64,000 bases of DNA, taken from positions 18,406-82,405 of the forward strand of contig JBAXXU010000002.1 in the NCBI GenBank assembly GCA_037127735.1, in the 5' to 3' direction. The notes below the pieces were generated by a model. That model searched no databases, had not been told where the DNA came from, and saw only the letters and a list, made by a program, of their open reading frames with translations. Position 1 is the stretch's first letter; every line of letters begins with the position of its first letter. Of the stretch, positions 22,987-30,692 are shown piece after piece. Origin of the DNA: Bacteroidota bacterium (GTDB taxonomy: Bacteria; Bacteroidota; Bacteroidia; Bacteroidales; VadinHA17). Both the position numbers and the translations under genes were made by a program.

Positions 22987-23169
22987 TATATTTGTTATTT
23001 TTATTTAAATTAAATATAAACAAGGTGCAATTTTAGTAATTTTCCGGGAGACTGCAAAATTTCTATAATGATATTTCCCTAAACAAGGAAGCGTGCGATG
23101 GCGCCATACGATGTGATCCTTCCGTGAGGTATCATTTTCGTGATCTCATATACCCGCGAGAAAAAGTCG

Positions 23170-23949
23170 TTATTTACTTTTTGCTTTCCGTGGGACATCT
23201 TCGATAATCTTTTCTTTTTTAAGTCTGAAAGAGAGGTAATTGATTTTTAGCCCTTCATTCAGGAAAATCTTTTCATAGTGAGTTTTTATAGAAAGGATAT
23301 CATCAGGAATGGCTTTTTTCACCCCCGGATCCCCTAAAGCAGACTTATTATGAGAGGTAATTGTTTCAATGGCAATATTTTCCGCGTAAAGATCATTCGT
23401 GGCAAAGATCATTTCAAGATTGTTATGGCTGACAACAGTTTTTGTATAGTTATACAGTTCAGTATTATCTGTTTTCAGATGTATTAACCCATTGTTTTTC
23501 AGGAATAAACGAAAGGTATTCAGGAACCATGGAGATGTAAGTCTCTTATTTGATTTTCTTCCCCCGGGATGTGGGTCAGGGAAAGTGATCCATATCTCAT
23601 CAACCTCATCAGCCGCGAAAAACGAATTAATAAACTCAATTCTTGTGCGGAGGAAGGCAACATTAAACAAATTCTGTTGGTTGGCTGTTTTGGCTCCCCG
23701 CCACATACGGGCTCCCTTTATATCAATACCGACATAATTGTTATCAGTAAACCTAGCAGCAAGTCCGGTTGTATATTCCCCTTTACCGCATCCAAGTTCA
23801 AGAATAACCGGATTTTTATTCTTGAACATCTCCGTGTTCCATCTGCCTTTTACAGGGTGGTCTTTAGCGGAAACATCTCTGATTTCGGGCTGGATAACAT
23901 TATCGAATGCTCCCAATTCTGTCCATCTGGCAAGTTTATTCTTTCCCAC
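23170..23949 (-). CDS. trmB: tRNA (guanine-N7)-methyltransferase with a 20-aa insertion
   Basis: LELGCGKGEY, GIDIKGARMW, ITFPDP, HLKTDN and KTHYEK. Confidence 0.95.
   Translation of the reverse strand: MGKNKLARWTELGAFDNVIQPEIRDVSAKDHPVKGRWNTEMFKNKNPVILELGCGKGEYTTGLAARFTDNNYVGIDIKGARMWRGAKTANQQNLFNVAFLRTRIEFINSFFAADEVDEIWITFPDPHPGGRKSNKRLTSPWFLNTFRLFLKNNGLIHLKTDNTELYNYTKTVVSHNNLEMIFATNDLYAENIAIETITSHNKSALGDPGVKKAIPDDILSIKTHYEKIFLNEGLKINYLSFRLKKEKIIEDVPRKAKSK
23314..23373. repeat. 60-nt in-frame insertion containing half of a C-run/G-run palindromic repeat
   Basis: AATGGC direct repeat at 23308-23313 and 23368-23373. ACCCCCGGATCCCCTAAAG (23321-23339) matches 30632-30650 at 15/19 positions. 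Confidence 0.65.
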
Positions 23950-27428: not shown

Positions 27429-27585
27429 ATTGATTTTCTTCGTTTACCCCGGCCCCAAGGGGAGCGAAGAACCGACGATGCGAAGCGAGGAGCTCGACGA
27501 AGTCAAAATCAATTTACTCCCCCCTCGCCTTCGCGTAGCCGCTACGGCAGAGCAAGGTTGGGGATGGGGTAAATAAATTGATTTT
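27429..27585. repeat. Composite nested palindromic (REP-like) element
   Basis: ATTGATTTT 27429-37, AAAATCAATTTA 27505-16 and TAAATTGATTTT 27574-85 are mutually complementary. Internal CCCC/GGGG arms and CGTAGCCGCTACG at 27534-46. Confidence 0.7.
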
Positions 27586-30625: not shown

Positions 30626-30631
30626 TATTTA

Positions 30632-30668
30632 ACCCCCCAATCCCATAAGGAGGTTTGGGGGTGAAAAA
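30632..30668. repeat. C-run/G-run palindrome (REP-like), probably a bidirectional terminator between convergent genes
   Basis: ACCCCCCAATCC-CATAA-GGAGGTTTGGGGGT followed by GAAAAA. Confidence 0.6.
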
Positions 30669-30692
30669 CACCGGGCAGGGAAAAATAATCTC

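Follow-up and report, generated by a model that had tools for sequence, protein, structure and literature searches.

The trmB gene of an uncultured Bacteroidales bacterium has an extra segment of 66 nt (22 codons, A193–I214, AIETITSHNKSALGDPGVKKAI) at positions 23308–23373, minus strand, of the window, i.e. the whole 64,000 nt stretch of DNA analyzed. The 22-residue loop that this segment adds to TrmB is probably (at a probability of about 0.8) the worn-down, inherited remnant of a short and normally intergenic hairpin repeat that was inserted in an ancestor. The ends of the segment are set by codon alignments with short-form TrmB relatives, which read ..EN[LI]-[SP]DDILSI.. at the insert site. 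A first-pass annotation of this DNA had given the size as 20 aa (60 nt); the codon alignment gives 22 residues and 66 nt.

trmB is located at positions 23170–23949 (minus strand) and encodes a predicted 259 amino acid tRNA (guanine46-N7)-methyltransferase with an intact reading frame. The protein matches the Pfam family PF02390 (Methyltransf_4; E-value = 1e-28, 100.4 bits, cut-off 24) and this match ends at residue 190, where the insert starts. TrmB chains in the PDB match with an E-value of 2e-26. With a 76-sequence alignment as input, AF2 predicts a confident TrmB fold (pLDDT 82.3), compared with a pLDDT of 36 for the single sequence. Foldseek pairs the model with 2fca, 7nzi and 1yzh (E-values ~1e-17), and the TM-score to B. 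subtilis TrmB is 0.83–0.91, normalised to target length. The 76-sequence alignment has no variation at residues D125-P-H, K135-R136, T160-D161, T223 and E226. The catalytic residues of E. coli TrmB are D144, R154/R155, D180, T217 and E220 (PMC10130221). The window protein appears to have the conserved catalytic residues, T223/E226 corresponding to E. coli T217/E220 when the two numberings are paired by eye.

Canonical TrmB has five residues between D-L-Y and D-D-I-L, whereas the window protein has 27. The conserved T-x-x-E motif of TrmB, T223-H-Y-E226 (positions 23272–23283, minus strand), begins nine residues past the insert end. Residues 196–213 of the AF2 model have a pLDDT below 50 and are without secondary structure, in agreement with the loop expected by the first-pass annotation. 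The extra segment is thus modelled as a loop of low-confidence prediction just upstream of the catalytic T-x-Y-E, and is probably disordered and on the surface. A TrmB-specific insertion between β6 and β7 is known in the E. coli and B. subtilis enzymes; this region contains the catalytic Thr and has no ordered structure in the crystal of the E. coli enzyme (PMC10130221). The segment described here falls in the same region.

A search of 40 related genomes and a large protein collection yielded 148 TrmB sequences for comparison. Of these, 78 have the native short loop (D-L-Y-x-E-N-L-S-D-D-I-L) at the insert site and the other 70 have 8–33 extra residues there. Dozens of segment-bearing relatives have a 68%–99% protein identity to the window TrmB; the closest ones are 72%–81% identical and most are 259 aa long, as is the window protein. 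The nearest relatives read E-T-I-S-S-Q-N-K-S-P-L-G-D-L-G-V-N-N where the window protein reads E-T-I-T-S-H-N-K-S-A-L-G-D-P-G-V-K-K. P0001, a 99% identical protein encoded on another contig, displays the same insert with two residue differences from the window within it. Since relatives including P0001 have the same insert, the segment is inherited and is not recent in this genome.

Two other trmB loci were observed in the course of this comparison. In one congener (L020, G003:C6:12916–13666) the gene appears broken, with an open frame of 186 aa, and the remainder matches with two TGA stops in another frame. A TrmB that is 64% identical to this Bacteroidales protein is encoded on a contig with the label of a Chloroflexota MAG (L033, JBLNAO010000020.1); the contig is probably mis-binned.

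Near-matches to the 19-mer ACCCCCGGATCCCCTAAAG, found at positions 23321–23339 of the insert, pointed to repeated elements on other contigs of this genome. Sites consisting of a C-run, a short loop, a G-run, 1–6 nt and a G-run followed by T number 111–142 in the genome, and an HMM of 13 canonical copies finds 67 matches. The canonical copies read AAAAGTCCCCC-ATTT-GGGGG-ATTTA-GGGGGT-AGAAA. About half of them contain GGGGGTAG and the others read GGGGGTAA or GGGGGTGA. The repeat is almost purely intergenic, as only one of 142 pattern sites is deep inside a long open reading frame. No convincing other in-frame copies were found in this genome: the element peptide is present in long open reading frames only in trmB and in a 153-aa open reading frame on contig C106, which is probably spurious. 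No target-site duplication was seen around the genomic copies. The genome has six matches to PF01797 (RAYT, Y1 transposase), whose flanks carry other hairpins and not this family. An Rfam search of the elements gave nothing above the gathering score, the only matches being sub-threshold miRNA-like hairpins; judged by Rfam, these short hairpin repeats of uncultured Bacteroidales are so far undescribed.

The family extends across the genus. Among 25 genomes of the genus, 21 contain the pattern AAGTCCCC-N2-8-GGGGATTTAGGGG, in 1–76 copies, and it is also present in two other genomes of the order; the reversed control pattern has zero matches. An exact variant, AAGTCCCCTTTAGGGGATTTAGGGG, is common in G005, G021, G023 and G025. 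Counts of the exact core pattern in congener genomes include 0 (G011, G013, G017 and G024), 52 (G005) and 76 (G018). G025, a genome of another family, has 22 copies and these are mostly inverted pairs ~88 nt apart. The hairpin core is also found in tandem arrays, e.g. four units with a 67-nt period in L119 (G021:C71:27250–27700) and a ~121-nt period in L120 (G005:C13:102600–103150); the 67-nt period is near the size of the trmB inserts (66–69 nt). In the window genome (G000), two family-like hairpins are located at C7:26540–26610, between the stop codon of a gene ending ...ITELLD, possibly tuf, and a downstream tRNA gene. These are an example of elements in very short intergenic spacers of a conserved cluster.

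The trmB DNA of the relatives, fetched via their contigs, displays this repeat inside the coding sequence. In the nearest relatives the insert core is ATAAGTCCCCTTTAGGGGATTTAGGGGT, i.e. AAT AAG TCC CCT TTA GGG GAT TTA GGG GTC, and an intergenic repeat dispersed in the genus has the identical sequence. The core of P0003 is ATAAGTCCCCTTTAGG[24 nt]GGATTTAGGGGTC and with the inner 24 nt set aside it matches at 29 of 29 positions; P0002 is identical to the consensus at 26 of 28, and P0016 and P0004 at 25 of 28 each. Local alignments of the trmB inserts with congener elements score 44–59 vs 16–20 for the nulls (sd ~2.4). An HMM made solely from the intergenic copies of the window genome matches the trmB inserts of L111, L112 and L114 with E-values of 0.007–0.023 in 336 kb, and a blastn search of this genome with the P0016 coding sequence finds the element on C106 (E-value = 7e-4). 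The best-matching sub-family was picked after the inserts of the relatives had been seen, hence there is some forking of paths in these figures. The repeat link is secure for the lineage on these sequence comparisons, and for the window copy it rests on homology. The claim that the segment came from a small palindromic repeat and was kept as an extra loop is supported, by the DNA of the relatives and not by the two short matches from which it was originally drawn. The reading that no repeat family exists, as the insert and the hairpin at 30632 are single-copy, was overturned by the near-matches to the 19-mer, by blast searches with the elements and by the DNA of the relatives.

The window copy itself is decayed. 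Its core is located at positions 23313–23348 (minus strand), where the coding strand reads ATAAGTCTGCTTTAGGGGATCCGGGGGTGAAAAAAG and the family consensus is ATAAGTCCCCTTTAGGGGATTTAGGGGTGAAAGAAAG. Identity with the core consensus is 23 of 28 nt. The match to the intergenic element of G005 is 31 of 37 nt, with an alignment score of 42 vs a null of 17.2 (sd 2.4, z ~10), however the insert is not significant against the HMM of this genome's own copies (3.6 bits, E-value = 5.2 in 64 kb). The core has TCT GCT for TCC CCT and CCG for TTA; the hairpin is destroyed and the sequence is no longer palindromic. Folding of the insert DNA is no better than that of shuffled sequences (z = +1.78). Only ~30–37 nt of the 66-nt insert match the repeat family, and no resemblance to the sequences around genomic copies was seen for the 5′ 30 nt (GCC ATT GAA ACA ATT ... 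CAG A) or for the far 3′ end (z at most 2.1). A blastn search of the whole 4.6-Mb assembly found no second copy of the insert, the best other match being 17 nt (E-value = 0.012). The repeat origin had been made to depend on further genomic copies and on repeat similarity in relatives; a second copy of the insert is indeed missing from this genome, but the copies in relatives do show the similarity.

The first-pass annotation had compared the insert with an intergenic hairpin in the same window. The 15/19 match of positions 23321–23339 with positions 30632–30650 is present, yet 11 other genomic sites are within four mismatches of the 19-mer. The 12-mer GGGGGTGAAAAA likewise recurs exactly at 30657–30668, yet the genome contains five occurrences of it, vs 0.41 expected if base composition alone is considered, and their contexts are unrelated. 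Each of these sequence facts, and the direct repeat discussed below, is at chance level when taken singly. The comparison element is a G/C-run hairpin, AACCCCCCAATCCCATAAGGAGGTTTGGGGGTGAAAAAC, at positions 30631–30669 (plus strand), and is single-copy by blastn. It matches the family HMM weakly (E-values of 0.14 and 0.77 in the window), has a fold z of −0.28, and appears to be a degenerate relative of this class of repeats.

Another abundant repeat sub-family has an exact copy, TGATTTTCTTCG-CTCCCCTTGGGGCCGGGGTAAA-CGAAGAAAATCA, at positions 27438–27463 (minus strand). This sub-family forms a long-stem hairpin around a CCCC/GGGG core, and more than 20 contigs of this genome contain it. Of a 116-aa MGMT-like gene (PF01035, DNA_binding_1), positions 23085–23198 (minus strand) retain the first 38 codons only (82% identical). 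The gene of relatives runs over the trmB stop codon and fills the gap before mrp; in the window genome the rest has been deleted and a truncated remnant is left.

The segment evolves nearly neutrally. In 30 long forms of the same length, the insert columns have a mean pairwise identity of 23% vs 76% for the rest of the protein. The loop lengths found are 8, 9, 15, 16, 19–21, 24–25, 27–29 and 33. If there was one gain, the segment has been lost at least five times. At four-fold degenerate sites the short form P0021 has an identity of 0.76 to the long form P0002 and 0.81 to the long form P0004, whereas P0002 and P0004 have an identity of 0.70; the window and P0005 are more distant long forms that lie outside these three. 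Since P0021 is closer to P0002 and P0004 than these are to each other, its short form is probably a secondary loss, one that can be seen without the gene tree, and the deletion brought back the native five-residue spacing.

A history that fits these observations is as follows. A short REP/MITE-like G/C-run hairpin repeat, with the core AAGTCCCC(C)-loop-GGGG(G)-ATTTA-GGGG(G)T followed by an A-run, would have landed in frame in trmB in the ancestor of a clade of uncultured Bacteroidales. The site would be the flexible stretch between strand β6 and the helix with the catalytic T-x-Y-E. The frame used has no stop codon (K-S-P-L-G-D-L-G-V), and thus the enzyme would have gained a loop of ~22 residues and stayed functional, the loop presumably being neutral for activity. 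The segment may then have drifted almost neutrally, with deletion to the native loop length in several lineages, partial trimming in others, and, in some, a form whose loop contains an additional 24-nt hairpin. The window copy would be an inherited, decayed descendant which is now merely a tolerated peptide loop.

The long-loop (33-residue) forms have 24 nt more in the hairpin loop, e.g. CTG CCC CGA CCG AAG CGT CGG GGG in P0003, a stretch that is a perfect 7-bp palindrome. In P0012, from a different species, the long-loop part with its flanks is identical at 29 of 29 nt (E-value = 1.3e-8) to elements on C115 of the window genome and also matches copies on C77 and C52. These elements (C115:1756–1784 and 342–370, C77:12011–12041, C52:21104–21127) have the core AGAGCCTGCCCTGAACGAAGTGAAGGGGG flanked by CCCCTCC.../...GGAGTGGG; a further member is on C3. 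At the DNA level the inserts of P0003 and P0012 can be aligned with an offset of 1 nt, which is made up for later in the segment, and ~27 nt are thus read in different frames, GLPRPKRRG vs EPALNEVKG. As the same DNA is read in two frames, the conserved entity is the DNA and not the peptide.

It is possible but unlikely that the trmB loop is a recurrent target, either of repeated element insertion or of gene conversion that overwrites a resident copy from genomic copies. This would explain the near-consensus cores, the long-loop variants such as P0012 with its perfect match to copies in a different species, and the unrelated segments of equal length found in some congeners. The ancestral core of the sub-clade is ~28/28 identical to the consensus though the four-fold sites among those genes are only 0.44–0.70 identical. 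Eight congeners have a segment of the same length (25) at the same site, and their branches of the gene tree are nested among those of short forms. It is difficult to explain both these eight unrelated segments and the near-consensus copies by one old insertion. The 67-nt tandem unit of a congener, which contains the core and is near the 66–69 nt insert size, also points in this direction. On the raw gene tree, from which the insert was masked, 18 losses are required if there was one gain, however the tree is poorly resolved, and when branches with support below 0.9 are collapsed the number falls to at least five. Further, no hairpin or repeat signal was found in the deep-branch long forms L003, L005–L007 and L012–L015, save a weak fold excess in L007; the mean identity of the cores, 0.91, exceeds the neutral expectation by a modest margin only; and neither a target motif nor an enzyme was identified. 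That the β6/T-x-Y-E loop is a landing or gene-conversion site of the genus-wide hairpin family, which has been filled, refreshed, expanded and cleanly emptied many times, is hence an outside chance. If true, the site would provide a natural record, on the scale of populations, of how a REP-like element cycles through one coding site in free-living Bacteroidales.

It seems quite improbable that the segment is an ordinary lineage-specific variable loop of TrmB which arose by slippage or duplication, the hairpin likeness being a by-product of the S-P-L-G-D-L-G-V codons. The site does tolerate inserts elsewhere, i.e. 17 unrelated extra residues in the order-level relative L026 and the eight congener segments without repeat similarity; the window copy alone is not significant against the family HMM; and phmmer pairs SALGDPG with B. 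subtilis SALGQPI, a hint of local duplication. However the identity of 25–29 nt to the dispersed repeat includes the spacer ATTTA and the flanking ATAAG and goes far beyond codon choice. The 29/29 match of P0012 to elements of the window genome and the reading of the same DNA in two frames in P0003 and P0012 also argue against it, and it is THYEKIFLNEGLKINY rather than the insert that truly corresponds to the B. subtilis motif. A tandem duplication of the adjacent T-x-Y-E-K-F-x-x-x-G was considered separately and is ruled out, as the real counterpart is again that sequence and the insert shares only ~5 of 18 positions by eye.

The insert is bounded by a 6-bp direct repeat inside trmB. AATGGC is present at positions 23308–23313 (downstream copy, GCC ATT = A213–I214) and 23368–23373 (upstream copy, GCC ATT = A193–I194), 60 nt apart as first reported. 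Excision of one 60-nt interval yields ...NDLYAENIAIPDDILSIKTHYEK, also as reported, but the product reads ENIAIPDD and is two residues longer than every short form, so the compact TrmB is not restored. There are 34 six-mer repeats at spacing 60 in the whole window, and 19 in-frame six-mer repeats at spacings 30–120 in trmB alone. The downstream GCC ATT is TCC ATT, TCC TTT or CCA ATT in relatives, TCC ATT being found in P0002, P0016 and P0050, and the 3′ GCC is TCC in most of them. Beyond P0001, the 5′ GCC ATT is common only to P0005; P0004 is partly alike (GCC AAT), and P0002, P0003 and P0016 differ at this position. A-I is present at both insert ends in the 99% identical P0001 alone. Comparison of these genes suggests that the exact six-mer pair is specific to the window's lineage. 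No closely related strain (>95% ANI) with the empty site ...AAT ATT GCC ATT CCT GAT... was found. The first-pass annotation's proposal of a recent palindromic insertion in this genome, with AATGGC as the target-site duplication and 20 residues added, is very improbable: the exact 60-nt spacing and the recurrence of CCATT-like ends (5′ in P0005; 3′ in P0002, P0016 and P0050) favor it, but the insert is common to relatives down to ~70% protein identity, the excision product is too long, six-mer repeats at such spacings are common, and the AATGGC repeat is not conserved in the homologous inserts.

As an inherited remnant of a hairpin repeat, the trmB segment can be compared with known repeats that are translated within genes. 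Rickettsia palindromic elements (RPEs; Ogata et al. 2000, 2002) are repeats of ~100–150 bp in ten families, found in dozens of genes per genome, 44 in R. conorii; as summarized in PMC10969869, they are small palindromic repeats located in frame in housekeeping genes and translated, at positions compatible with protein fold and function. The likeness to RPEs drawn in the first-pass annotation is apt, inasmuch as an in-frame palindromic repeat in a housekeeping gene is translated as an extra segment, is inherited and decays (PMC10969869). Unlike RPEs, the recognisable core here is ~30–37 nt within a 66-nt insert; in this genome trmB alone contains it, while RPEs are in frame in many unrelated genes; and the host is a free-living member of the Bacteroidales, which belong to another phylum. 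By analogy, the segment is treated here as an RPE analogue and not as an RPE family member, set apart by host and element length.

Intragenic REPs of the GTAG/CGTC-tagged type encode 20–30 residues in several species as dimers or groups (Di Nocera et al. 2013, PMC3733652). CGTC repeats are listed there in Bacteroidetes, without the present family. REPs are multi-copy imperfect palindromes of 20–40 nt; most are located downstream of genes and occasional ones lie entirely within open reading frames (PMC3733652), and the G/C-run hairpin family is likewise a short imperfect palindrome with many extragenic copies. However the family has no clear tetranucleotide tag, GGGGGTAG being present in some copies only; it consists of a C-run/G-run hairpin and then a second G-run and an A-run; and the PF01797 genes of this genome are flanked by hairpins of another kind. 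MITEs known from in-frame fusions (ERIC, BOX, Correia, cyanobacterial) are also non-autonomous short repeats that are read through in a host open reading frame (PMC10969869). Here, unlike MITEs, target-site duplications were not found, and the inverted repeats characterised are those of the internal hairpin only. In-frame palindromic insertion is already known from Rickettsia and REP elements and the trmB case works like those; it points to no new mechanism.

The trmB segment indicates that an enzyme of an essential pathway can take up hairpin repeats of uncultured Bacteroidales as an extra peptide; so far, most documented examples of this have come from Rickettsia and a few REP-rich Proteobacteria. 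The insert is also relevant to annotation, as it interrupts the Pfam match at residue 190 and leads pairwise alignments with solved TrmB structures astray. The metagenomes show many stages of the insert, i.e. near-consensus, decayed, trimmed, long-loop and deleted. As these are all found at one site, they form a compact series for measuring the rates at which such inserts decay and are purged.
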